Assembly: GCA_030390025.1 (NCBI GenBank)
Contig: CM059432.1
Span: 9,424,001-9,488,000 of the forward strand
Length of the DNA stretch: 64,000 nt
Source: Squalus acanthias
Lineage: Eukaryota
Reading direction: 5' to 3'
Positions within the stretch are counted from its first letter, which is position 1; each line of letters starts with the position of its first letter. The position numbers and the translations under genes were made by a program. Positions 2,047 to 64,000 of the stretch are shown here, piece by piece. Below the pieces are notes generated by a model. The model ran no database searches and was not told where the DNA came from. It worked only from the letters and a program-made list of their open reading frames with translations.

Positions 2047-4320
2047 GGCTGAATCTTAACTCCCAACAATGGCTGGGTTGGGGTCGGGTCAGAGTTTAAA
2101 ATTCAAAAAAATCGTAAACAGGAACCCAACCCACCTCAAACCCACCCATGGGACGAGGGGTGGGCAACCAATCCGCTCGTGGAAGGCGGGTTGATCATTT
2201 AATTATTTTAATGAGGCCGCCTGCCTTCATTTTAACAGTCATTCTATTTTAAACTCATGTCGGCCAGACTTCCCGGGCCTCGGGGAACCCGGCAGCTAAA
2301 AGCAGGTGAGAAGGGCTGAATCCATGAGGTAAATGCTTTTACATGTCTGCTTGTGGGCCAGGAAGAGCAGGAGTGTTTCCTCCAGGCCTAACAAACTACC
2401 AAGTTAAACCCCCCGCCCCCCCGGTCATCTGTCTGCTCCCTGCCACACCATCGGACCCCCAGACCACCATCAGAACCCCCGACCACCATCGGAATCCCCC
2501 TGATCATTATCTGACCCTCCCCGACCACCATCAGACAAACCCAATCACCATCGGGCATCCCCAGATCATAATCAGACCCCCCCGATCACCATCGAAACCA
2601 CCCTGACCACCATCAGACCCCCCTGACCACCATCGGACACTCCCCCGATAAACATCGGAACCCCCCGATCACCATCGGATACCTCGACCACCATCGGAAC
2701 CCCCCGACCACCATCAGAACCCCCGATCACCATCAGAACCCCCCGATCACCATCGGAACCCCCCGATCACCATGGGAACCCCCCGATCACCATCAGACCC
2801 CCCGATCACCATCGTAACCCCCCGACCACCATCGGAACCCCCCGATCACCATGGGAACCCCCCAATCACCATCAGACCCCCCGATCACCATCGGAACCCC
2901 CCGACCACCATCAGACCCCCCGATCACCATCGGAACCCCCCGACCACCATCGGAACCCCCCGATCACCATCGGAACCCCCCGATCACCATCGGAACCCCC
3001 CCGACCACCATCGGAACCCCCCGATCACCATCGGAACCCCCCGACCACCATCGGAACCCCGCCGATCACCATAGGAACCCCCCGATCACCATCGGAACCC
3101 CGCCGATCACCATAGGAACCCCCCGATCACCATTGGAACCCCCTGACCACCATCGGAACCCCCTGACCACCATCGGAACCCCTCGATCACCATCAGATTC
3201 CCCGATCACCATCGGAACCCCCTGATCACCATCGGAACCCCCCGATCACCATCGGAACCCCTCGACCACCATCGGAACCCCGCCGATCACCATAGGAACC
3301 CCCCGATCACCATCGGAACCCGGACAAGAACCCCCCGATCACCATAGGAAATCAGACCCCACCCCAGACCACAATCAGACCCCTCGACCACCATCGGACA
3401 CCTCGACCACCATCGGAACCCCCCGATCACCATTGGACACCCCCCGATCACCATCGGAACCCCCCCGACCACCATCGGAACCCCCGGATCACCATCGGAA
3501 CCCCCCGACCACCATCGGAACCCCCCGATCACCATAGGAACCCCCTGATCACCATCGGAACCCCCTGACCACCATCGGAACTGCTCGATCACCATCAGAA
3601 TCCCCGATCACCATCGGAACCCCCTGACCACCATCGGAACCCCTCGATCACCATCAGAATCCCCGATCACCATCAGACAACTCGACCACCATCGGAACCC
3701 CCCGATCACCATCAGAACCCTCCGATTACCATCGGAACCCCCCGACCACCATCGGAACCCCTCGATCACCATCAGAATCCCCGATCACCATCAGACAACT
3801 CGACCACCATCGGAACCCCCCCGATCACCATCAGAACCCCCCAGACCACAATCAGACCACCCCCAGACCACAATCAGACCCTCCCCAGACCACAATCAGA
3901 CCCCCCGACCACCATCGGACACCTCGACCACCATCGGACACCCCCCAGACCACAATCAGAACCCCCCTGACCACCATCGGACACCCCTGCCGCGATCGAG
4001 AACCACCCCCACCATCGGGAGCCCCCCACCGCAATTGGAACCCCCTCCGCGATCGGGCCCCACCACGATCTCATCCACACCCCCACTACACCGACCCGCT
4101 CTCCTCGGCTGCGGCCATGTGCTGTAGGCTTCCTCGCCCGAAAGGCCTCCAGCCTGTCAATCAGGCTGCCTGCGGGCTGCAACCTGACAGAAATATATTT
4201 CAGGCGCCCCGCGGTTAAAAACTGCAGCACATTCAGGAAACCCGTTCTTTCGGGTTTCCCACCTTCTAAACAGCCCCTCCGCCCCGCACAGAACGTGTAT
4301 CCGGGCTTAAACCCAGGCTT
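2047..4320. mobile_element. GC-rich non-autonomous DNA transposon remnant hosting a minisatellite
   Basis: Starts GGCTGAATCTTAAC, resembling the GGCCCCGATTTTAAC TIR of the 53371 MITE; GC-rich flanks surround the array; right TIR is degenerate. Confidence 0.45.
2450..4030. repeat. 19-20 bp minisatellite (CCCCCCGATCACCATCGGAA)n
   Basis: Visible tandem array of about 1.55 kb, roughly 80 units. Confidence 0.97.
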
Positions 4321-6842: not shown

Positions 6843-7614
6843 GGGCCGTATTTTGCGACCTCCACGGGTGCGTACGATGTAATGTTTTTTAAAAAATTTA
6901 TTTCAATGTGTACTAGGTGCCCGCGCGCCCGTAGGGGCTGAGCAAGGGGCGAAGCGCATGCGCTAAAACCCGGAACTCGCGATCTGTCAAGAATTCTCTT
7001 GACAGATGATCCGCATCCCCGGGAGAAGGGCCTCCGCGGGCGGAGAGTTGCGCTATTTGCCCAACTTCTGCCCGGCGAAGGCCCGTGAAATTCTTATGCC
7101 TGGTAAAAGCAGACGTAAGGCCTGTTTTTACCAACATACGAGTTTTAAAAAATAGAAAAATAAAATTTTATCACTCATTTTTACATTAAAATCCCTGTCC
7201 AATAAGGGAAGTTTATTTTTAGCCCTGTTAAAACATATCATTTTGTTTAAATAAAATTTTTGTTTAAAATATTTAATTAAATGCCATTTTAATTAATTTT
7301 AAGTATGTAATGTTTTTTAAAATTTATTTCATGTGTTTGTGTATTTTTTAAGTGATCCCCATTCATACTTATGACAGTTCCGTACGTACGCAACTCCCAT
7401 AAGTATGAATGGGGATTCCCTTTCTTTTATTGGTTGGGCCGGCCCACGTGATCCCAGGGGCGCTTGCGAACCGCCTGTGTCCCTGGGATACGGGGACCTC
7501 TGCCTGCGCGGACCCGGAGAGGCCAAGGATCGCGAGCCTCCGTAACTCCCGGGCCACCAGATACATTCAGAGATATTTTACAGGTCGGAAGCCTCCAATC
7601 GCAATTTCAGGCCC
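6843..7614. mobile_element. PIF/Harbinger-type MITE
   Basis: Imperfect 16-bp TIRs GGGCCGTATTTTGCGA / TCGCAATTTCAGGCCC; 3-bp TSD AAC at 6840-6842 and 7615-7617; AT-rich core. Confidence 0.8.
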
Positions 7615-17998: not shown

Positions 17999-18036
17999 TA
18001 CCTGAAGAAGGGGCAGGATAGCTCCGAAAGCTTGTA
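17999..18036 (+). ncRNA. Minimal type I hammerhead ribozyme motif (Penelope family 1 pLTR)
   Basis: TAC CTGAAGA A GGGGC-AGGATA-GCTCC GAAA GC TT GTA: core CUGANGA/GAAA, stem I TAC/GTA, stem II, palindromic AGCT. Confidence 0.75.
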
Positions 18037-19144
18037 ATTTTAAATAAATCTGTTGGACTATAACCTGGTGTTGTGCGACTTCTCGTTTTTGTCCACCCCA
18101 GTCCAACGCCGGCATCTCCGCATCATAACTCAGTAGCTCATTGATTAATGTCAATAACCCTCCAGATTGATATTGATAGACCCCATGATAGACATTCAAA
18201 CTTACTTACCTACAATGTGTTGTTGCTCACAGGTGATGAGGAATTTGGCTGCAGAGCTTTCTGCCTTTAAGACGCTAGGATCTGATGGACCGTTAACCAA
18301 GAGAAATGCTACATTTACACATTCATACAGATACATTTTTTTATATGGAATTTACAGCACAGAAACAGGCCATTGGGCCCAACTGGTCTATCTCGCACCC
18401 TACAGCATCTCATCCTATCAGCAGACACGTCAGGTTTAATTCATAAAATAGAAATTGTATAGGAACTACGCCTTTCCAAAAAAAAAACAGGAGCTTCGCT
18501 TTTACTGTTCACCATTTAAACGGTGCTATTTATTCATTTTTATTTTATATTGCAAATAAGTAATCTATTCTAAAATCGTTGAAAGCGGGTATCCTGTATC
18601 AAGCTCAAACGCCGATGTGATTTCAGACTGAAGCAGAAAGCCAGGTGCAATTGTATCTGCCTGGCATTAAGATGAAGGGAATCATTCCTTCTGATGAGCA
18701 CAACACAGGCTGGAATTGTAAATTGAGTATGCAGCAGTCAAGGTTTGTTTTCTTTTGAAAACGTGAGGAATGGCGACCAGAGATTGCAGGATTTAGTGAG
18801 AATCCTTCCTCCCAGTTTAACGATTGTATCAAGCGTATAACTTTTGCGGAAAAAATATTTTAATACGTTTGGACTCCGTTTAATGGGTGCAGCAGAATTA
18901 AATAAATAGTTATAGCTGATAAGGCATGTCAGTGCATCGATATAGCTAATTTCTCATTCGTCCTATCTGTCTATAGACACTACACTTGGGCTCGAAATTC
19001 GGTATCGCTCTGGTTGGGGCGCTAAATTTTAAAAAGTTGGAGAATTAGCGCCAGGCGCTAATCCTTCTGACCTCCCGCTAAATTGATTGTTAGAACTCCA
19101 AGAAAGAACTGGAGCGCTAAATCAAGCGCTAATCACCTAACTTA

Positions 19145-22100
19145 GGACGCTACACACAGAGAGCGGGGCGCTACACACAGAGAGCCGGGCACTACACAGA
19201 GAGAGAGCGGGGCACTACACACAGAGAGAGCGGGGCGCTACACACAGAGAGAGCGGGGCGTTACACACAGAGAGCGGGCACTACACACAGAGAGCGGGGC
19301 GCTACACACAGAGAGCCGGGCACTACACACAGAGAGAGCGGGGCGCTACACACAGAGAGAGCGGGGCGCTACACACAGAGAGAGCGGGGCGCTACACACA
19401 AAGAGAGCGGGGCGCTACACACAGAGAGCGGGGCGCTACACACAGAGAGAGCGGGGCGCTACACACAGAGAGCGGGGCGCTACACACAGAGAGCGGGGCG
19501 CTACACACACAGAGAGCGGGGCGCTACACACAGAGAGCGGGGCGCTACACACAGAGAGAGCGGGGCGCTACACACAGAGAGCGGGGCGCTACACACACAG
19601 AGAGAGCGGGGCGCTACACACAGAGAGAGAGCGGGGCGCTACACACAGAGAGCGGGGCGCTACACACAGAGAGCGGGGCGCTACACACAGAGAGCGGGGC
19701 GCTACACACAGAGAGAGTGGGGCGCTACACACAGAGAGCGGGGCGCTACACACACAGAGAGAGCGGGGCGCTACACACAGAGAGTGGGGCGCTACACACA
19801 GAGAGCGGGGCGCTACACACAGAGAGCGGGGCGCTACACACAGAGAGCGGGGCGCTACACACAGAGAGAGCGGGGCGCTACACACACAGAGCGTGGCGTT
19901 ACACACACAGAGAGAGCGGGGCGCTACACACAGAGAGCGGGGCACTACACACACAGAGAGCAGGGCACTACACACAGAGAGAGCGGGGCGCTACACACAC
20001 AGAGAGCGGGGTGCTACACACAGAGAGAGCGGGGCGCTACACACAGAGAGCGGGGCGCTACACACAGAGAGAGCGGGACGCTACACACACAGAGCGTGGC
20101 GCTACACACAGAGAGCGGGGCACTACACACACAGAGAGCAGGGCACTACACACAGAGAGAGCGGGGCGCTACACACAGAGAGCGGGGCGCTACACACAGA
20201 GAGCGGGGTGCTACACACACAGAGAGAGCGGGGCGCTACACACAGAGAGCGGGGCGCTACACACACAGAGAGCGGAGCGCTACACACAGAGAGCGGGGCG
20301 CTACACACAGAGAGCGGGGCGCTACACACACAGAGAGAGCGGGGCGCTACACACACAGAGAGAGCGGGGCGCTACACACACAGAGAGCGGGGCGCTACAC
20401 ACACAGAGAGCGGGGCGCTACACACAGAGAGCGGGGCGCTACACACAGAGAGAGCGGAGCGCTACACACAGAGAGCGGGGTGCTACACACAGAGAGCGGA
20501 GCGCTACACACAGAGAGAGCGGGGCGCTACACACAGAGAGCGGGGCCCTACACACAGAGAGCGGGGCGCTACACACAGAGAGAGCGGGGCGCTACACACA
20601 GAGAGCGGAGCGCTACACACAGAGAGCGGGGTGCTACACACAGAGAGCGGGGCGCTACACACAGAGAGAGCGGGGCGCTACACACAGAGAGCGGGGCGCT
20701 ACACACAGAGAGCAGGGCGCTACACACAGAGAGAGCGGGGCGCTACACACAGAGAGAGCGGGGCACTACACACACAGAGAGCGGGCGCTACACACAGAGA
20801 GCGGGGCGCTACACACAGAGAGAGCGGGGCGCTACACACAGAGAGAGCGGGGCACTACACACACAGAGAGCGGGCGCTACACACAGAGAGCGGGGCGCTA
20901 CACACAGAGAGAGCGGGGCGCTACACACAGAGAGAGCGGGGCACTACACACACAGAGAGCGGGCGCTACACACAGAGAGAGCGGGGCGCTACACACACAG
21001 AGAGCGGGCGCTACACACAGAGAGCAGGGCGCTACACACAGAGAGCGGGGCGCTACACACAGAGAGAGCGGGGCGCTACACACACAGAGAGAGAGCGGGG
21101 CGCTACACACAGAGAGAGCGGGGCGCTACACACAGAGAGAGAGAGAGCGGGGCGCTACACACAGAGAGAGCGGGGCGCTACACACAGAGAGAGCGGGGCG
21201 CTACACACAGAGAGCGGGACGCTACACACAGAGAGAGCGGGGCGCTACACACAGAGAGAGCAGGGCACTACACACAGAGAGAGCAGGGCACTACACACAG
21301 AGAGAGCGGGGCGCTACACACACAGAGAGCGGGGCGCTACACACACAGAGAGCGGGACGCTACACACAGAGAGAGCGGGGCGCTACACACACAGAGAGCG
21401 GGACGCTACACACAGAGAGAGCGGGGCGCTACACACAGAGAGCGGGGCGCTACACACACAGAGAGCGGGACGCTACACACAGAGAGAGCGGGGCGCTACA
21501 CACAGACAGCGGGGGCGATACACACACAGAGAGAGCGGGGCGCTACACACAGAGAGAGCGGGGCGCTACACACAGAGAGAGCGGGGCGCTACACACAGAG
21601 AGCAGGGCGCTACACACACAGAGAGAGCGGGGCGCTACACACACAGAGAGCGGGGCCCTACACACAGAGAGCGGGGCGCTACACACAGAGAGCGGGGTGC
21701 TACACACAGAGAGCGGGGTGCTACACACAGAGAGCGGGGCGCTACACACAGAGAGCGGGGCGCTACACACAGAGAGAGAGCGGGGCGCTACACACAGAGA
21801 GAGCGGGGCGCTACACACACAGAGAGCGGGGCGCTACACACAGAGAGAGAGCGGGGCGCTACACACAGAGAGAGCGGGGCCCTACACACAGAGAGAGCGG
21901 GGCGCTACACACAGAGAGCGGGGCGCTACACACAGAGAGCCGGGCGCTACACACAGAGAGCGGGGCGCTACACACAGAGAGAGCGGGGCACTACACACAG
22001 AGAGAGAGAGCGGGGCGCTACACACAGAGAGCCGGGCACTACAAACAGAGAGAGAGAGCGGGGCGCTACACACAGAGAGCCGGGCACTACACGCAGAGAG

Positions 22101-25100
22101 AGCGGGGCGCTACACACACAGAGAGAGCGGGGCGCTACACACAGAGAGAGCGGGGTGCTACACACACAGAGAGAGCGGGGCGCTACACACAGAGAGAGCG
22201 GGGTGCTACACACACAGAGCGCGGGGCGCTACACACACAGAGAGCGGGGCGCTACACACAGAGAGCGGGGCCCTACACAAAGAGAGAGCGGGCGCTACAC
22301 ACAGAGAGAGCGGGGCGCTACACACACAGAGCGCGGGGCGCGACACACAGAGAGTGGGGCGTTACACACAGAGAGTGGGGCGTTACACACAGAGAGAGCG
22401 GGGCGCTACACACACAGAGCGCGGGGCGCTACACACAGAGAGCGGGGCGCTACACACAGAGAGAGCGGGGCGGTACACACAAAGAGCGGGGCGCTACACA
22501 CAGAGAGCGGGGCGCTACACACACAGAGCGCGGGGCGCTACACACAGAGAGCGGGGCGCTACACACACAGAGAGCGGGGCGCTACACACAGAGAGAGCGG
22601 GGCGCTACACACACAGAGAGCGGGGCGCTACACACAGAGAGCGGGGCGCTACACACAGAGCGCGGGGCGCTACACACAAAGAGCGGGGCGCTACACACAG
22701 AGAGCGGGGCGCTACACACAGAGAGCGGGGCGCTACACACAGAGAGAGCGGGGCGCTACACACAGAGAGCGGGGCGCTACACACAGAGAGCGGGGCGCTA
22801 CACACACAGAGAGAGAGCGGGGCGATACACACAGAGAGCGGGGCGCTACACACAGAGAGAGCGGGGCGCTACACACAGAGAGAGCGGGGCGCTACACACA
22901 GAGAGAGCGGGGCGCTACACACACAGAGAGCGGGGCACTACACACACAGAGAGCGGGCGCTACACACAGAGAGCGGGGCGCTACACACAGAGAGAGCGGG
23001 GCGCTACACACAGAGAGCGGGGCGCTACACACAGAGAGCGGGGCGCTACACACACAGAGAGAGCGGGGCGCTACACACAGAGAGAGCGGGGCGCTACACA
23101 CAGAGAGAGCGGGGCGCTACACACACAGAGAGCGGGGCGCTACACACAGAGAGAGCGGGGCGCTACACACACAGAGAGCGGGGCGCTACACACAGAGAGC
23201 GGGGCGCTACACACAGAGAGCGGGGCGCTACACACAGAGAGAGCGGGGCGCTACACACACAGAGAGCGGGGCGCTACACACAGAGAGAGCGGGGCGCTAC
23301 ACACAGAGAGAGCGGGGCCCTACACACAGAGAGAGCGGGGCGCTACACACAGAGAGCGGGGCGCTACACACAGAGAGAGCGGGGCCCTACACACAGAGAG
23401 CGGGGCGCTACACACAGAGAGAGCGGGGCGCTACACACAGAGAGCGGGGCGCTACACACAGAGAGAGCGGGGCGCTACACACAGAGAGCGGGGCGCTACA
23501 CACAGAGAGAGCGGGGCGCTACACACAGAGAGAGCGGGGCGCTACACACAGAGAGAGCGGGGCGCTACACACAGAGAGAGCGGGGCGCTACACACAGAGA
23601 GAGCGGGGCCCTACACACAGAGAGAGCGGGGCGCTACACACAGATAGCGGGGCGCTACACACAGAGAGAGCGGGGCCCTACACACAGAGAGAGCGGGGCC
23701 CTACACACAGAGAGAGCGGGGCGCTACACACAGAGAGCGGGGCCCTACACACAGAGAGAGCGGGGCCCTACACACAGAGAGAGCGGGGCCCTACACACAG
23801 AGAGAGCGGGGCGCTACACACAGAGAGCGGGGCGCTACACACAGAGAGAGCGGGGCGCTACACACACAGAGAGAGCGGGGCACTACACACAGAGAGCGGG
23901 GCGCTACACACACAGAGAGCGGGGCACTACACACAGAAAGCGGGGCGCTACACACACACACAGAGAGCGGGGCCCTACACACAGGGAGAGCGGGGCCCTA
24001 CACACAAAGAGCGGGGCGCTACACACAGAGAGCGGGGCGCTACACACACAGAGAGCGGGGCGCTACACACAGAGAGCGGGGCGCTACACACAGAGAGAGC
24101 GGGGCGCTACACACAGAGAGAGCGGGGCGCTACACACAGAGAGAGAGCGGGGCGCTACACACAGAGAGAGCGGGGCACTACACACAGAGAGAGCGGGGCG
24201 CTACACACAGAGAGAGCGGGGCGCTACACACAGAGAGAGAGCGGGGCGCTACACACAGAGAGAGCGGGGCGCTACACACAGAGAGAGAGCGGGGCGCTAC
24301 ACACAGAGAGAGCGGGGCGCTACACACAGAGAGAGAGCGGGGCGCTACACACAGAGAGAGCGGGGCGCTACACACAGAGAGAGCGGGGCGCTACACAGAG
24401 AGAGCGGGACGCTACACACAGAGAGAGCGGGGCGCTACACACACAGAGAGAGAGCGGGGCGCTACACACAGAGAGCGGGGCGCTACACACAGAGAGAGCG
24501 GGGCGCTACACACAGAGAGCGGGGCGCTACACGCAGAGAGCGGGGTGCTACACACAGAGAGCGGGGCGCTACACACACAGAGAGCGGGGCACTACACACA
24601 CAGAGAGCGGGGCGCTACATACAGAGAGAGCGGGGCGCTACACACACAGAGAGCGGGGCGCTACACACACAGAGAGCGGGGCGCTACACAGAGAGAGCGG
24701 GGCGCTACACACAGAGAGCGGGGCGCTACACACAGAGAGCAGGGCGCTACACACACAGAGAGCGGGGCACTACACACACAGAGAGCGGGGCGCTACACAC
24801 AGAGAGAGCGGGGCGCTACACACAGAGAGCGGGGCGCTACACGCAGAGAGCGGGGTGCTACACACACAGAGAGAGCGGGGCGCTACACACACAGAGAGCG
24901 GGGCGCTACACACACAGAGAGCGGGGCGCTACACACACAGAGAGCGGGGCGCTACACACAGAGACAGAGCGGGGCGCTACACACAGAGAGCGGGGCGCTA
25001 CACGCAGAGAGCGGGGCCCTACACAAAGAGAGAGCGGGGCGCTACACACAGAGAGCGGGGCCCTACACAAAGAGAGAGCGGGGCGCTACACACAGAGAGA

Positions 25101-26676
25101 GCGGGGCGCTACACACAGAGAGCGGGGCGCTACACACAGAGAGAGCGGGGGGGCTACACACACAGAGAGAGCGGGGCGCTACACACAGAGAGCGGGGCGC
25201 TACACACAGAGAGCGGGGGGGCTACACACACAGAGAGAGCGGGGCGCTACACACAGAGAGAGCGGGGCGCTACACACAGAGAGAGCGGGGCGCTACACAC
25301 ACAGAGAGAGCGGGGCGCTACACACAGAGAGAGCGGGGCGCTACACACAGAGAGAGCGGGGCGCTACACACACAGAGAGCGGGGCGCTACACACAGAGAG
25401 AGCGGGGGGGCTACACACACACAGAGAGCGGGGCGCTACACACAGAGAGAGCGGGGGGGCTACACACACAGAGAGAGCGGGGCACTACACACAGAGAGCG
25501 GGGCGCTACACACACAGAGAGAGCGGGGCGCTACACACAGAGAGCGGGGCGCTACACACACAGAGAGAGCGGGGCGCTACACACAGAGAGCGGGGCGCTA
25601 CACACAGAGAGCGGGGCGCTACACACACAGAGAGAGCGGGGCGCTACACACAGAGAGCGGGGCACTACACACAGAGAGAGCGGGGCGCTACACACAGAGA
25701 GCGGGGCGCTACACACAGAGAGAGCGGGGCGCTACACACAGAGAGAGCGGGGCGCTACACACAGAGAGAGCGGGGCGCTACACACAGAGAGCAGGGCACT
25801 AAAAACATAGAAACATAGAAACATAGAATCTAGGAGCAGGGAGAGGGGGCGCTACACACAGAGAGAGCGGGGCGCTACACACAGAGAGAGCGGGGCGCTA
25901 CACACAGAGAGAGCGGGGCGCTACACACAGAGAGAGCGGGGTGCTACACACAGAGAGCGTGAGCGCAACACACAGAGAGAGCGGGGCGCTACACACAGAG
26001 AGAGCGGGGCGCTACACACAGAGAGAGCGGGTGCGCTACACACAGAGAGAGCGGGGCTCAGAGAGCGGGACGCAACACACAGAGAGAGCGGGGACGCAAC
26101 ACACAGAGAGAGCGGGGCGCTACACACAGAGAGAGCGGGGCGCTACACACAGAGAGAGCGGGGCGCTACACACACAGAGAGCGGGGCGCTACACACAGAG
26201 AGAGCGGGGCACTACACACAGAGAGCGGGGCGCTACACACAGAGAGCGGGGCGCTACACAGAGAGAGAGCGGGGCGCTACACACAGAGAGAGCGGGGCGC
26301 TACACACAGAGAGCGGGGCCCTACACACACAGAGAGCGGGGCGCTACACACACAGAGAGCGGGGCGCTACACACAGAGAGCGGGGCGCTACACACAGAGA
26401 GCGGGGCGCTACACACAGAGAGAGCGGGGCGCTACACACAGAGAGAGCGGGGCGCTACACACAGAGAGCGGGGCCCTACACACAGAGAGCGGGGCGCTAC
26501 ACACAGAGAGCGGGGCGCTACACACAGAGAGAGCGGGGCGCTACACACAGAGAGAGCGGGGCGCTACACACAGAGAGCGGGGCGCTACACACAGAGAGCG
26601 GGGCCCTACACACAGAGAGCGGGGCGCTACACACAGAGAGAGCGGGGCGCTACACACAGAGAGAGCGGGGCGCTAC
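19145..26676. repeat. About 7.5-kb compound minisatellite [(CA)n(GA)nGCGGGGCGCTA], mostly 20-24 bp units
   Basis: Visible tandem array, roughly 350 units; interrupted at about 25801-25840 by a tiny CR1 tail. Confidence 0.98.
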
Positions 26677-26846
26677 CCGCAGAGCAATAACCAATTCCAG
26701 GTGCACTCCAATCTGGACTCATCATTCACACTGGCTCCTTCCAGTTCTTAAAGCGGGGGTTCAATCATTCTGCACAACCTCATTCTCAACATTGCTGGCT
26801 CTGAAGGCGACCTCCAAACAACTCAACAGTTACGCCTCTTATCCTC

Positions 26847-28576
26847 ACGGCTGATCCCACTCCCAGGGAGAGAGCTCGCCGTTTCAGCGACCAAGCATTG
26901 GAGGCATTGGCCGCGGCAGTCGTAAGAAGGAGGGCAGTGCTGTTCCCGGCCACTGGCAGGAGGCCATTGCCCCAGGTCTTCAGGGCAATGTGGAGGGAAG
27001 TGGCCCAGGACGTCTTGGCCAGCAGTGTGGTCCTCAGGACCCTCACACAGTGCCGTAAAATATTCAATGTTCTCACTCGGGTGGTCAAGGTGAGTACATG
27101 CGTCAACAAGTCCAACATACCAGCATCTGAACCTCAGTCTGTACACACTGCACAAACCACCACACCCCCACCACTCACCCACCAAGCATCTCCACCTACT
27201 AAAACTCACATCCACATCTCATGTCTTGCCTACAAACACAGCTATTCAACTATGGCAGGCACATCGCCGAAACACACTCACTCACACACTTTCCTTTCTC
27301 TTGCAGGCCAAGCTGAGCCACAATGGGAGGGAGCAGGAATGAACAGGCGGGGCTGAAGCGGACATCCAACAGCTTACAGACCTGGAGAAGCGAGTGCTGA
27401 GAGTCATTGGGCGCCAGGTGGCGGGCGCCATGGCTGTCGGCGACGTCAACGGCCTTGGAGGAAACAACAGTATGTTCAGCCCCTCTCCTTCTCTCATCCC
27501 ACTTCCCCCTCACACCACAAGCCTTTCCCACTTTCCAGCTCCTGATACTGTCCGCATTCCTTGCTCCCTTCATGCCCCCCTGCCCTCACCTTAACGCGAG
27601 TCTTGTGCCTTTATGCTTTCAGGTAATCAGCAACCAGCTGACCAGCCTGTCCCTGAGCCTCCCAGTGAGAGTGAGGCGGGAGAAGAGGAGGAGGAAGAAA
27701 GCACCGCGTCACTGCATGTCTCACCCACAGGCACCACCTCAGATACTGGCACTACGCGATCTTTAGAGGCAAGTTTAGTAGAAGGGTCTGCACTGGGTGA
27801 TGCACTGGGGATGAGTGGGCTGCAGCAAGGCCAGGGGGAAAGGGTAGCTCGGGTGCCAGCACCCCAGAGGGCGAGTTCGCGTGCGAGTTCTGCTACACAG
27901 GACTCAGATGAGGACCTTGATGGGGAGGCGTTCACAAGAAGGGTGATGGCCATGCACACCGAGATGATAGGTGCAATGGCAAGAGTGCCCGAGAGCCTGT
28001 CGGCAATGGTGAGGAGCTGGAGGAGTCCGCCTCCAACATTACACAGAGCTCTGCGCACACCATGGAGCCCATCCTTGGCTCTGCAGAGGATGATGGACTC
28101 CCTGAGAGACCATGGGGACCCAGACCTCATGTAGCGTGTCGTGGAGATGTGGCAGCATCCATTGCAGCACAGGTGGCTGTAATGCAGTCAATGATTGCTG
28201 CAATCGAGTCTCAGACCGCTCTCATGCAGTCTCAGCTTGATGCCACGCAAGCTCTGACTGTTGCCATCATCGCTGGGTCCACCGCAGTCCACTGGGGATC
28301 TTACGGTGTCACAGCAGCCCAGCAATCTGTGCTCCAACAGATTGCTAGGGATGCTGAGGTGCTGCCCTGGGGGAGTGGCAGTGGGTGTCAGTGGAGCAGG
28401 AACCTGCTGTCCTCTCTCAAGACGACAGCATTCCTGATCCCACCACTGCCACTCCGCCATTGCACCTGTTGCTGCCTGTCATCCAGACTGCCGCCGCCGA
28501 TCCTGAGGTGGTGAGTCTACAGCCGGACCTTCCAGGCTCAGAGCTGGTCGAGGGCATCCTGCAAGGCCATCTGTAG
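26847..28576 (+). pseudogene. Harbinger Myb/SANT-like DNA-binding protein, three exons (26847-27089, 27307-27469, 27623-about 28576)
   Basis: RERARRFSDQALEAL...WREVA...RTLTQCRKIFNVL...K|gtgagt; ttgcag|AKLSHNGREQE*TGG...LTDLEKRVL; phase-1 intron gtatgt...tttcag; exon 3 is acidic and frameshifted. Confidence 0.82.
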
Positions 28577-28611
28577 TCTCTGGCACCAACACTCAGCAGC
28601 CTTCCACCCGG

Positions 28612-29421
28612 AAATGTAGTCCCTTCTCTTCTGTAGAGAGCCTTTGTGACCTCTCGGATGCAGCAATGGACGGTGAACTGCGAAATGTTAGCTGTGTCTC
28701 CTGCTGCAGACTGGAAGGATCCGCTGGCGTAGAAATTGAAGGGCGACGGTGACCTTGACGGCCACTGAGAGAGCCGTGGTCGCCCTGATCTGAGGCTGGA
28801 GGTCTGCCTGCAGGAGATGGCAGAGCTCTGTGACCACCTCCTTGCTGAAGCGGAGCCTCCTAACACACTGCTCCTCAGTGAAATTTATGTAGGAGAAGTA
28901 CTCTCGGAATACCCTGAAAGCCCTGTTGACCCTCCTCTCTCTGGCCACATAGAAGCATAGAAGCATAGAAGATAGGAGCAGGAGTAGGCCATTCGGCCCC
29001 TCGAGCCTGCTCCGCCATTTAATGAGATCATGGCTGATCATCCAAACTCAGTACCCTGTCCCTGCTTTCTCCCCATATCCCTTGATCCCTTTAGCCTTAA
29101 GAAATATATCTCACTCCTTCTTGAATATATTTAATGAATTGGCCTCAACTGCCTTCTGTGGTAGAGAATTCCACAGGTTCACCACTCTCTGGGTGAAGAA
29201 ATTCCTCCTCATCTCAGTCCTAAATGGCTTACCCCTTATCCTTAGACTGTGACCTCTGGTTCTGGACTCGCCCGCCATCGGGAACAGCCTTCCTGCATCT
29301 AGTCTGTCTAGTCCTGTTAGAATTTTATAAGTTTCAATGAGTTTTCCAATGCTTCTCTCTGCCTCCGCTGCCTCCGACGTTGACGCTGGAGGGCGAGGTC
29401 GAGCGCCAGTACAGCCCCCGT
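28612..29421 (-). pseudogene. Harbinger transposase N-terminal part (catalytic DDE region deleted), split by a CR1
   Basis: (ACG)GAVLALDLALQRQRRRQRRQREALEN | VARERR...RVFREYFSY...QCVRRLRFSKEVVTELCHLL...ALSVAVKVTVAL / NFYASGSFQSAAGD...ISQFTVHCCIREVTKAL. Confidence 0.85.
28949..29340 (-). mobile_element. CR1 3' fragment inserted in the transposase
   Basis: Near-identical to the reverse complement of 39333-39667. Confidence 0.9.
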
Positions 29422-29810
29422 TAACGTCTCCAAGGGTAGGAATTCGAAATCTTAGCAGAAGGAAAGTGACTAATTTTTAGGGGGCAGAACACTTCTGAAA
29501 GTAAGAAACGTCTAACTCACTGAAAACGGCTGTTTCGCAGTGTGAAACTGAGAAGGCAGCATTGATTGGCAACTAAAATGAAAGCGGACGTCGATCCCTT
29601 TAAATACCGCTCCGACAGCGGCCATCCAACTGCATCGCGCCTCCTCTTCCTGCCGTTGTTCAGGCTCAGCGCTAAGGGAGGGGGCGACAGTCAATTATGC
29701 ATCTGGGCCATTAACGGGGCGTTCCAAACTAATTGGGGCCATGATCTAGCAGCTGCTAAAGGCCTTGGTGCTAACTGTTAGCACCAGCGCTAAATCCCGG
29801 GTGAATTTCG

Positions 29811-30120
29811 CCACCAGACGTCTCAAAGCGCTTTACAACCAATGAAGTACTTTTTTGAAGTGCAGTCACTGTTGTAATGTGGGAAACGTGGCAGCCAATT
29901 TGCGCACAGCAAACTCCCACAAACAGCAATGTGATGATGACCAAATAATCTGTTTTTGTGATGTTGGTTGAGGGATAAATATTGGCCAGGACACCAGGGA
30001 TCACTCCCCTGCTCTTCTTCAAAATAGTGCCATGGGATCTTTTACATCCCCTGAGAGAGCAGACGGGGCCTCGGTTTAACGTCTCATCTGAAAGACGGCT
30101 CCTCTGACAGTGCAGCACTG
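29811..30120 (-). mobile_element. Deu-domain SINE (partial)
   Basis: Reverse complement of the SINE core. Confidence 0.85.
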
Positions 30121-30234
30121 GAGGAGATAATAGCAGAGTGATAATACCAAGTACTCAGCTCCCCTAGTCTTATCCACTCACCCTCCTCGACACAAACTTG
30201 GTGATGCCTGCCAAGCCTCAAGTATATAATGGTA

Positions 30235-31054
30235 GGGCTAGAAATTCATTATCGCCCAGGAATGGGCGGAATCTTTGGAAAAGTTTGAGAATTAGCGCCA
30301 CGCGAGCCCCATTTGGGGCGCTAAATCAGAAAATCAGAAAAGCTGGAAAAGTTAGCGCCAGGCGCTAACCTCTTCCAGCTTTTCTAAAGTTTCCATTTTT
30401 TGCTCTGAGGGAAGCGTAGCGCTGGACCAAGCACGCCACGTCCTTCTTGGAGCGCAAGGGGGGGAATGTCTGCGACCCAGGGTGCACGGCTCAGCAGCGC
30501 CACGCACTGGGGACGGGTGGTGCTGCCGCGTTGCAGGGGCTCGTCCCTGAATTAAAGGGAAGGGCCCCACGCTGTGAACTCTGCAGTTTTTTAAAAACTT
30601 ACCTGGACCGCCGGGGAGAGGGGGTGCCGCGCGATCAGCCCGATACTCAAGCAGAGAGCCGGGCTGACCGATCGCAGCACGGACCCCGCCTCCGGAGCAA
30701 AAAAACAAAAAAATAATTTTTCAAAAAAGCCGACATTTTCACCTTTAAATGGCGCCCCGCTAGCGGCCGGCCGCCTTGCTCACGGTCGCTGCCATCGCCC
30801 GGCGCTGCTGCAGGGGACGAAGGGGAATTTTTGTGCCGAGGCGCTACCGGGGTGATGCGCCCGAAGATGACGTCATGATCTCCGGGCGCAGAAGATCGGG
30901 GGCGCAGGAGATCGGGGCGCAACCTCGTAGCGCCGCCGCTAACCTCCCGCGGAATTTGGCAGGTGGCGAGGTCAGCACCGCGCACGGGCGAAAAGGCCTT
31001 TGCGCCCCCTTAGCGCCCCCCACAGGAGGCGCAAAGGAGGGCAATTTCTCCGCC
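30235..31054. mobile_element. Harbinger-type MITE related to the 18988 element
   Basis: Begins GGGCTAGAAATTC, shares gagaattagcgcca and the TTAGCGCC-A-GGCGCTAA palindrome, ends CAATTTCTCCGCC. Confidence 0.75.
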
Positions 31055-31237
31055 ACAGGGTTTTAATCAATTTTTTTAAGCACTGTACTTCTGCATAACC
31101 GTCTTCCTGTTCTCTTTGTGCCCTCCTCTTCCCCATTCCCATTCTTTCTTCATTTCATTTTAATTTTATCTTTGCTTAACTATTGTAGAGTTGGAGGAAA
31201 ATCAGTCCTGAAGGCTGATACTTCAGTTAACTATTCA

Positions 31238-38454: not shown

Positions 38455-38948
38455 TTAAGAGTGTATGCTGTCCTTCGTGCTGCCATACATGTCTGCCAGC
38501 TTTTTAAAGCGGGGGCCCCAGTCACTGAGGTAATCGTAATTCTGGTCCGAGGCTGAAGTAATGGACTCTAAGGAGCTGAGCGACTCTGCCACTGAGCCGT
38601 TCCCCTCGAACGCGTACGTCTGTAGAGAGTCATACGGAGGAGCGCAGGGATCGGTGTCTGCGCCTTTCATCCTTTCCCAGATAAATTCCCTGAAGATGAT
38701 ATTATCGGGAGACATCTTGTGGGCCGTTTTGGAAAAGAGCTGAATTTCAGGCGTGACATCCCGGCGTGTTTTCACTTCTTGGATGAAATTGAGATTCCTC
38801 AGCGCGGCCATGTCGAAAGCTTCCGTGTCCTCCTCACCGCCTCCTTCATCATCGTACCTGACTATGTTCTCCCTGATGTCCTTCTCCTCGTCAAATATCA
38901 AAGGCTCCTTCTTGCGTCTTCTCAGGGTCACAATGAGCAGCACCAGCA
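38455..38948 (-). CDS. cdh7: Cadherin-7 last coding exon (end of transmembrane helix and catenin-binding cytoplasmic tail)
   Basis: ttgtag|TG CTG...[57 protein letters not shown]...[13 protein letters not shown]...[32 protein letters not shown] and RRDVTPEIQ match CDH7 as I recall it among type II cadherins. Confidence 0.96.
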
Positions 38949-39004
38949 CTACAACGCAAAAAAAAAATAACAATGTTCAAAATCTGCTCCACCAATGTAA
39001 AATA

Positions 39005-39667
39005 TACAGGAACAGAGGAACAGCAGTAGGGTAGGCCATTCAGCCCCTCGAGCCTGTTCCGCCATTCAATTAGACCTGTAACATACCTCCATCTACTCGC
39101 CTTAGGTAAAGGCTATTAAGGGTTACGGAACCAAACAAAAACCTCCGTTTTGAAATTTTCAATTGTCCCCACAGCCTCAACAGCTTTTTGGGGGAGCGAG
39201 TTCCAGATTTCCACCACCCTTTGTGTGAAGAAGTGCTTCCTGACGTCACCCCTGAATGCCCAAGCTGAACTTCAAATATAAGCATATTCATAGCGGAATG
39301 AATGCAGTTCGGTATGAAAATGAAATGATTATAGGAAGGATGTTCCCGATGGCGGGGGAGTCCAGAACCAGGGGTCACAGTCTAAGGATAAGGGGTAAGC
39401 CATTTAGGACTGAGATGAGGAGGAATTTCTTCACCCAGAGGGTGGTGAACCTGTGGAATTCTCTACCACAGAAGGCAGTGGAGGCCAATTCATTAAATAT
39501 ATTCAAGAAGGAGTTAGATATATTTCTTAAGGCTAAAGGGATCAAGGGATATGGGGAGAAAGCAGGGACAGGGTACTGAATTTGGATGATCAGCCATGAT
39601 CTCATTGAATGGCGGAGCAGGCTTGAGGGGCCGAATGGCCTACTCCTGCTCCTATCTTCTATGTTTC
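39005..39667. mobile_element. Two CR1 3' fragments in opposite orientation (39005-39256 minus, 39333-39667 plus) in the last cdh7 intron
   Basis: Both carry CR1 3' hairpin and tail sequence. Confidence 0.85.
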
Positions 39668-40144
39668 TAATGCAGTTTATCAAGCCATCCCCTCGGGTAG
39701 AGGGGGGGGTGGAATCAGCCAGGTTTCCCACCTCCGTTCACTATTCAGTGATTCCAAAGGAAAAGCAGGCATGTTTGGACAATGAGTGATTCCCTCTGAT
39801 GCACACAACTGGAATTAATTTTCCACAACAGGAGCTTTACATAGACACTGTAACGTGGTGACATATTCCCCATGTACTTAGCATTCATGAGCTAGCACTG
39901 AGGTAATCACATCCTGCTTCTGTAATTCATGGTCAGAGACTCGGCCCACAGTGCAATAGAAATTGTAAAGAAATGTAGAGTGTCGGAGCAATCATTCACT
40001 TGCACAAAACTCTCGCTGAGAAATTGATCATTATGGACGAGCCTTGTAGTCATCACAAGAAAGTCACCCACTGCCTTTGCTGCTTAAATATCTGTTAGCA
40101 AAATGGATCCAGGACAACACTTGCCCTCTCCTCCTCATACGTTG

Positions 40145-63682: not shown

Positions 63683-64000
63683 GGGGGGAAAAATTCAGCT
63701 GCTTGCGCCTCCCGTTAGCGCCTTAAGAGGGCGCTAATGGGGCGTAAAGCAGCTAACGCCCGGGCGCAGCGCCGCCCACGCCTCCCGAAAAATTCAGCGG
63801 GAGGTTAGCGGCGGCGCCAGCCGGTAGCGCCCTGTGGCGCTGCGCCGCCGGCGATGACGTCATCGCCGTGCGCAGCACCCCGCTCACGCTCCAGCCGCGA
63901 TCTTCAGTCGCGCCCCCTGATTTACCGCCAGACGCTATGTCCGACGGGTTCAGGGAGGCGTACGTGCGGCCGGGGCGGCGATATTTAAAGGGGAGGTGGC
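63683..64000. mobile_element. Harbinger-type MITE (cut by window edge), related to the right end of 30235-31054 in reverse
   Basis: GGGGGAAAAATTC start, ttgcgcctcc...ggggcgctaa, repeated TTAGCG/GGCGCTAA motifs. Confidence 0.7.

Follow-up and report, generated by a model that had tools for sequence, protein, structure and literature searches.

Tandem repeats can be born from transposable elements (TEs), from which at least 23% of human minisatellites and satellites derive (PMC3389668). The Haber-Louis slippage model has been treated together with such cases as Xstir in a miniature inverted-repeat transposable element (MITE) of Xenopus and the minisatellites of mouse B1 and human Alu (PMC6947457). 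For the Harbinger superfamily, the repeat VaccSat7 arose by multiplying the terminal part of an element (PMC7290377). In Drosophila virilis, the repeats of Tetris TIR-220 grew to kilobase arrays inside the element, and the authors propose that extra binding sites for transposition proteins lie in the repeats and that large arrays disable the element (PMC4079207). As for the transposons themselves, the closest described ones are Harbinger3_DR and the NuwaI group of PHIS transposons, whose features are taken here from PMC9710019 and PMC4482050; according to one paper, subterminal binding by a Harbinger Myb-like protein has been shown only for zebrafish Harbinger3_DR (PMC9710019). In this study we describe a minisatellite of about 7.5 kb in the shark Squalus acanthias, which lies between a Harbinger-type end and a Myb/SANT pseudogene. 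It was analysed within a stretch of 64,000 nucleotides (assembly GCA_030390025.1, contig CM059432.1, positions 9,424,001 to 9,488,000 of the forward strand), which we call the window and from whose first letter all coordinates are counted.

Most probably, the array had its origin within the subterminal region of a Harbinger-type element, on the Myb side. The reading that we favour, with a probability of about 0.6, is that a subterminal segment of an element now dead grew in place into a neutral, lineage-restricted minisatellite. The features on which this reading turns are the following.

18986-18988, + strand: flanking triplet TTG on the left, with ACAC before it, as used in the register table
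18989-19000, + strand: left end GGCTCGAAATTC, like a terminal inverted repeat (TIR); it starts at 18988 if the TIR begins GGG
19001-19144, + strand: subterminal block with five GCGCTAA, including those of the palindrome at 19044-19062; homologous to the non-transposase-side end of the element at 30236
19145-26675, + strand: minisatellite of 331 units, (CA)2-5(GA)2-6-GCGGGGCGCTA
25802-25846, - strand: short insert within the array, resembling the 3' tail of a long interspersed element (LINE); single copy, not multiplied with the units
26676-26685, + strand: last unit, partial and diverged, CCCGCAGAGC; 91% identical to the preceding unit over 22 nt
26686-26846, + strand: sequence upstream of the Myb gene and putative promoter; it has a TTAAAG box at 26748
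26847-28608, + strand: Myb/SANT pseudogene, with predicted exons at 26847-27089, 27307-27469 and 27623-28608

Compared with the systems above, it is most likely one more case, and a large one, of the known route by which repeats are born from a transposon end. With VaccSat7 it would share its mode of origin, a tandem repeat built by multiplication of sequence close to one end of an element of Harbinger type. However, the plant repeat has units of 49-79 bp, occurs as 3-5 units per element and goes with TAA/TTA target-site duplications (TSDs), whereas the shark array has about 330 units of 21-25 bp with inner microsatellites and a putative motif variant in the unit, and its host is a decayed two-gene copy in a vertebrate genome. 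Short internal repeats from terminal sequence, forming arrays of kilobase size in the element, are likewise known from Tetris TIR-220 and Galileo, but Tetris is Foldback/Mutator-like and has 220-bp units within the TIR on both sides, in up to 66 copies, while the shark array is one-sided and internal to a short TIR. What it would have in common with TE-derived minisatellites is duplication between flanking repeats of 5-10 bp in a transposon, local expansion and lineage-restricted amplification; it is long for a minisatellite, and the name Harbinger has no occurrence in the available text of PMC6947457. With Harbinger3_DR and NuwaI the host would share the pair of Myb/SANT and transposase genes, short TIRs starting with G and subterminal motifs repeated at both ends, whereas the shark copy is dead and lacks both the DDE part and a TSD, and its motif comes from enrichment only. 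A literature search did not find this shark repeat reported; supplements lay outside the search, so Repbase-type listings may already hold it.

In each unit of the array a CA run is followed by a GA run and then by the core GCGGGGCGCTA, which gives the general form (CA)n(GA)m-GCGGGGCGCTA. Tandem Repeats Finder places the array at 19148-26684 with a period of 23 and 334.6 copies, and our own parse gives 331-332 units, mostly of 21-25 bp; the original prediction, made from the letters of the window, was right about the array and too high in its count of about 350 units. The exact unit form is found in 218 of the 331 units, and the residual difference among units amounts to 138 of 7413 bases, or 1.9%, when run length is allowed for and 2 long units are excluded. 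GGGGCGCTA occurs 238 times, on the + strand every time. GCGCTA has 255 copies and is followed by C in all of them, which gives 255 GCGCTAC, at a density of 34 per kb, and 0 GCGCTAA. The head-to-tail arrangement of units in the range of 10-60 bp, and the short direct repeats or partial units that bound the array, are those of TE-derived minisatellites. At the left edge stands a partial unit, GGACGCTAC at 19145, and at the right edge the CCCGCAGAGC variant, which continues into further units in contigs from other genomes; partial units at both edges are expected if duplication began between short direct repeats. Variants within the array sit in short local runs, such as a 4-unit block repeated at 20723-20900.

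Several other accounts of the array were considered and set aside. A higher-order repeat was rejected because the longest run of units to recur is 7 long, while shuffling gives a mean of 5.1 and a maximum of 8, and so was a coding role for the long open reading frames (ORFs) across the array (up to 2225 aa), since the + strand of the unit is free of stops and the frame shifts freely with unit length. An assembly artefact is unlikely in view of the many local variants and the one unique insert, with the length being that of the assembly. The tail motif of this insert of about 45 bp, which we take to be that of a CR1 LINE, recurs at 28947; directly to the right of the insert lie a few more diverged units (25947-26100), and the insert could date local turnover. 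In the core of the unit, CpG transitions are 5.1 times as frequent per site as other transitions, and 4.5 times when counted by clusters. Because of this 4.5- to 5.1-fold excess, germline methylation of the CpG sites in the array is suggested.

The array is flanked on the left by a Harbinger-type end (TIR at 18989) and on the right by the Myb/SANT pseudogene. The terminus lies 156 bp before the first unit and the last unit 172 bp before the Myb start site, close to the 160 and 170 bp that had been predicted; the palindrome ATTAGCGCC-A-GGCGCTAAT, predicted at 19044-19062, indeed begins at 19044. The TIR-like pattern of 18989 recurs at 30236, 31053, 63686 and 7613. The left end aligns to the non-transposase end of the neighbouring element at 30236-31053, with a local alignment score of 53 against a shuffle maximum of 25 and a blastn identity of 77% over 70 bp, and to none of the other ends. 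It is of the non-transposase-side type and faces inward, towards the Myb gene, and the distance from TIR to TTAAAG box, with one unit replacing the array, would come to 257 bp, compared with 316 bp in the related element at 30236.

The subterminal motif bears on the same question of origin. The window contains 17 copies of GCGCTAA, whereas shuffled sequence has a mean of 4.2 and a maximum of 9, and 14 of these copies are no more than 200 bp away from one of six TIR-like ends. At these ends the density of GCGCTA(A/C), a motif derived from enrichment alone, is 14.7 per kb compared with 0.22 per kb elsewhere, about 67-fold higher. The cluster of GCGCTAA-type motifs predicted at the right end was found only in part, namely as 2 exact copies and a GTGCTAA palindrome at 29766-29786. 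By analogy with Harbinger3_DR, GCGCTAA is a fair candidate for the site of the Myb-like protein. The array unit has 6 of the 7 bases of this end motif, and its 9-bp core is common to 4 of the 6 local ends (the left end and three further ones), which is more than expected by chance, since only 9 of 341 background windows and, among the shuffled units, 75 of 5000 attain this level. From this 9-bp sharing, and from GCGCTAC in place of GCGCTAA, the unit would therefore hold a variant of the subterminal motif, with a putative role as binding site. GCGCTAC makes up 3 of the 17 end motifs and 0 of the 7 at the ends of the array-bearing element, which are all GCGCTAA.

Further evidence comes from public contigs of other genomes, where part of the Myb block is present in 20 of the 24 listed runs, with at most 40% of its words, a level that corresponds to about 3% distance from the nearest variants. 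Four of the 24 runs (X1, X6, X13 and X22) were compared over 26630-28940, a stretch to the right of the left end, and X22, with 17 partial reads, was not used. Family contigs number 21,935 in X1, 41,902 in X6 and 26,583 in X13 and are mostly 90-95% alike; the region 26686-26846 is multi-copy in all three runs, and the element is dispersed in many copies as the PIF/Harbinger-NuwaI (PHIS) elements are. Among these three organisms, the unit is tandemly amplified in two (X1 and X6) and near single-copy in the third (X13). At 26664 the summed contig depth, which is not a copy number, reaches 755,191 in X1 and 685,306 in X6, or 93 and 134 times the depth at 26686, and 211 and 208 records, respectively, fit two places, their joints showing tandem and diverged units. 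In X13, where the family is abundant, the summed depth goes steadily down from 26754 to 26664 (4066, 364, 154, 79), being at 26664 0.5 times that at 26686, and 0 records fit two places or run over the ends. In addition, record 1 of X1 (depth 19, 17 differences) spans 26654-26788 free of gaps, and this diverged contig has a unit joined to the putative Myb promoter. Our reading of these data is that other copies also have the unit beside this promoter, with close to a single copy of it in one lineage and amplification at many loci in another. As a separate trial, a metagenome scan with a 20-mer of the junction returned 2 loci, matching over 20-21 bases only, which we took as chance. In the original prediction the array was a runaway expansion of the element's own binding site: an origin in the subterminal region is supported as the most likely one by the 9-bp core, the partial edges, the X1 contig and X13, but the identity with the binding site is not, GCGCTAC being found in none of the seven motifs at the element's own ends.

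The same data may be read in another way, in which the unit belongs to an independent AC/AG-rich minisatellite family spread through the genome that landed in, or was picked up by, this Harbinger subfamily, and the GGGGCGCTA match is partly coincidence. We consider this rather unlikely. The very high unit depth and the diverged variants in X1 and X6 would suit it, as would a left-end match of 9 bp only, which 1.5-2.6% of controls reach, and an array that never carries the A closing the commoner subterminal motif. However, the 9 bp of the unit are found in three further ends as well, the passage from array to element is gradual on either side and free of an insertion scar, and X13, which has the family, shows unit-like sequence at roughly half the depth next to it and no tandem records.

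Some observations also weigh directly against growth in place from a Harbinger-type end. Record 1 of X1 reaches only 22 letters to the left of the array end at 26675, below the bridging rule of 31 letters, and the depth excess is one of summed depth rather than of copies. No record of another copy joins the left 156 bp to the promoter through a few units, in a comparison stretch that excluded the left end, and no loose end near 26650 is seen among the 20 displayed of 3831. The nearest-neighbour clustering of the 4 commonest array variants is not significant (p 0.06-0.57). Moreover, the unit depth in X1 and X6 is as great as that of those stretches of the Myb gene which are most abundant, and some units are strongly diverged; because of this high depth and these diverged units, many arrays may lie outside Harbingers in the two organisms.

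In the favoured growth in place, the start would be a NuwaI/Harbinger3-like element with one or few copies of a segment of 21-23 bp. This ancestral segment would have lain between the Myb-side subterminal motif block and the Myb promoter, bounded by the short direct repeats CGCTAC...CGCTAC and CAGAG...CAGAG, between which slippage or unequal exchange would have first duplicated it. Local duplication and conversion, to which the variant pattern points, would then have led to about 330 units, with the inner CA and GA runs slipping like microsatellites. The host copy has died, and turnover of the array, by growth or homogenisation, continued past the divergence of this copy, because at 1.9% the array is more uniform than the host is relative to the family contigs, most of which are 90-95% alike. 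In the last step, which is partly shown, the unit would have been tandemly amplified at many places in two of the organisms, while a third that has the family shows no such amplification. Today the array is most likely neutral, methylated DNA that includes the motif variant by happenstance, where we infer the neutrality, the amplification mode and the first duplication.

Whether the array and its two flanks belong to one insertion depends on the right half of the locus, of which the parts are as follows.

28609-28946, - strand: probable N-terminal remnant of the transposase; frameshift near 28739, cut at the Myb junction, no catalytic part left
28947-29341, - strand: LINE fragment inserted in the putative transposase gene; 97% identical to 39333-39669 by self-blast; end of the ORF of a reverse-transcriptase element
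29342-29802, - strand: 5' part of the putative transposase gene and its upstream region; TATA-like box at 29597-29604, two GCGCTAA, palindrome at 29766-29786
29803-29814, - strand: right TIR-like end; over its last 2-5 bases it is identical to the neighbouring short interspersed element (SINE)
29811-30119, - strand: SINE copy without its 3' tail at the right-end junction; the missing piece is absent from the left flank

Both ends have CGAAATTC in inverted orientation (8 of 8 bases), and their outer 4-5 bases differ, those of the right end coinciding with the SINE. An inverted motif pair with a 1-nt spacer is also seen at both ends (19044-19062 and 29766-29786), pointing outward on the left and inward on the right. 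For a TSD of 3 bp (TWA or CWG), none of 8 registers matches at 18989-29814, the best being TTG against CAG. Because no register gives matching flanks, we do not file 18989-29814 as a single intact insertion, which had been assumed for 18988-29812.

One may then suppose a composite, in which the left end with the array and the Myb block come from different insertions and were joined by a deletion, the array having grown at or near the join. Besides the absence of a TSD in all 8 registers, such a join would account for the right end abutting a SINE without 3' tail, with the tail not at the left flank, and for the deletion junction at 28608/28609 between Myb pseudogene and transposase remnant. 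Yet these lesions are confined to the right half, where one deletion, at 28609 or at the right end, is enough to explain them. The left end is of the type found on the non-transposase side, and its distance from the Myb gene, which it faces, is normal. The neighbouring element at 30236-31053 also has no TSD in 8 registers, and because of this a TSD mismatch is not rare locally. We hold a composite origin to be quite improbable. The missing TSD and the abutting SINE could be due to any of three events, namely a small deletion at the right end, an adjacent deletion made by the transposon, or the fusion of two copies at 28609, and all of them would concern the right half only.

Other TIR elements occur in the window. 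The one at 30236-31053 is non-coding, with one end like 18989, the other like 63686, and a TATA-like box at 30742. A MITE had been proposed at 63683; what stands there is a Harbinger-like end at 63686 (63686-64000), which interrupts a LINE fragment, has a TATA-like box 298 bp inwards and is truncated by the edge of the window. Possibly it is the end on the transposase side of some larger element. An AT-rich element at 6900-7613 has a TIR-like end at 7613 on the - strand, an internal palindrome at 7355-7416 and 0 GCGCTAA within 200 bp of its end. A second minisatellite, with a 20-bp unit and about 77 copies, lies at 2446-4057 inside a probable non-coding TIR element at 2047-4318, which has imperfect inverted ends and TTT on either flank; because of this second case, internal arrays in such TIR elements may be common in the genome. 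A search of 18000-31200 against Rfam gave 0 matches.

As in PHIS elements, a Myb/SANT gene is present, here as a pseudogene. Its Myb domain matches Pfam PF13873 with E 1.6e-05, above the gathering score, and 24 protein relatives are found at E<=0.001; two of them, P0001 and P0003, have several tandem Myb domains (3 and 12 matched stretches), which could be tandem duplications of exons or fusions of gene models. A PDB sequence search returned no solved Myb relative, the best hit having E 0.031 and being unrelated. A word-indexed protein search scored 0 of its 1623 candidates. The start codon of the pseudogene is ACG, while by family depth the start is ATG in 4512 of 4614 in X6, 1104 of 1146 in X13 and 170 of 453 in X1. 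By tblastn, exon 2 has a TGA stop at 27340, and exon 3 has frame changes within 28017-28131 and near 28385. Family reads differ from the pseudogene at 26848, 27061 and 27070. In the predicted recognition helix, residue 72 is I and residue 75 is V, compared with K or R at residue 72 in 21 of 21 and D at residue 75 in 19 of 21 aligned relatives (3 of the 24 are unaligned). Past 28608 family contigs continue into other sequence, whereas the copy in the window jumps to the minus-strand remnant, its 3' end being deleted. Judged from these lesions the Myb gene of this copy is dead, and the adjacent gene, which the original prediction had held to be a possible source of the protein that binds the array, cannot be that source because of the ACG start, the stop in exon 2, the frameshifts, the two helix changes and the 3' deletion.

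The minus-strand remnant at 28609-28946 is the probable start of a transposase, a view based on the architecture. Pfam gave 0 matches for it, and in the ESM Atlas the nearest named cluster is DUF8040, with a score of 0.91, which is a lead only; presumably it is HARBI1-like. The LINE at 28947-29341 we assume to be CR1-like.

A functional role for the array was part of the original prediction, as a decoy for Myb-like protein supplied in trans or as a chromatin platform near a cadherin gene, whose position is given below.

38458-38976, - strand: last coding exon of the cadherin gene; Pfam PF01049, E 4.4e-34

In this account the array is a multimer of the putative site and binds the protein of other copies or of a domesticated relative, serving as decoy or else influencing the cadherin gene as a chromatin platform. 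Its 255 GCGCTAC sites at 34 per kb and the 67-fold enrichment of GCGCTA(A/C) at the six ends are what it would build on, together with the zebrafish Harbinger3_DR Myb-like protein, which binds a 9-bp subterminal motif (PMC9710019), and the tandem repeats of Galileo with extra transposase sites, as cited in PMC4079207. However, the array carries the minor variant of the motif (3 of 17 end motifs), the CpG decay pattern suggests that the CpG of the motif is methylated, the Myb gene in cis is dead and no tandem arrays are seen in X13. GCGCTAA outside the array already amounts to about 300 per Mb in the window, so that the 255 array sites equal about 1 Mb of background, and for this reason a single array adds <0.1% of sites per Gb, if the window is typical. 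We regard this account as very improbable. The last cadherin exon ends 11.8 kb from the array, in repeat-dense DNA, near the roughly 11 kb predicted; the gene is presumably cdh7 or cdh7-like. Nothing was found in the window that links the array with the cadherin gene, and both regulation of this gene and a decoy action are unsupported.

At the level of the family the thought can be carried further. Given the amplification of the unit at numerous loci in X1 and X6 (93- to 134-fold depth excess, against 0.5-fold in X13), a family-wide sink may still be conceived, in which, in one shark lineage, a Harbinger subfamily made its own subterminal motif a dispersed minisatellite family, with tens of thousands of GCGCTAC sites that bind the Myb-like protein or a relative of MSANTD/NAIF1 type. 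This seems to us a long shot; if true, the transposon would have built its own genome-wide titrating sink or chromatin mark.

Taken as growth in place from a transposon end, the locus offers a well-preserved minisatellite that is still joined to its two parent flanks, and another organism may show its ancestral state of low copy number. The analysis also yields GCGCTA(A/C) as a candidate recognition motif for Harbinger Myb-like proteins. If the form of the motif in the array were bound, it would give a link, directly testable, between the birth of a satellite and the self-limitation of a transposon family.

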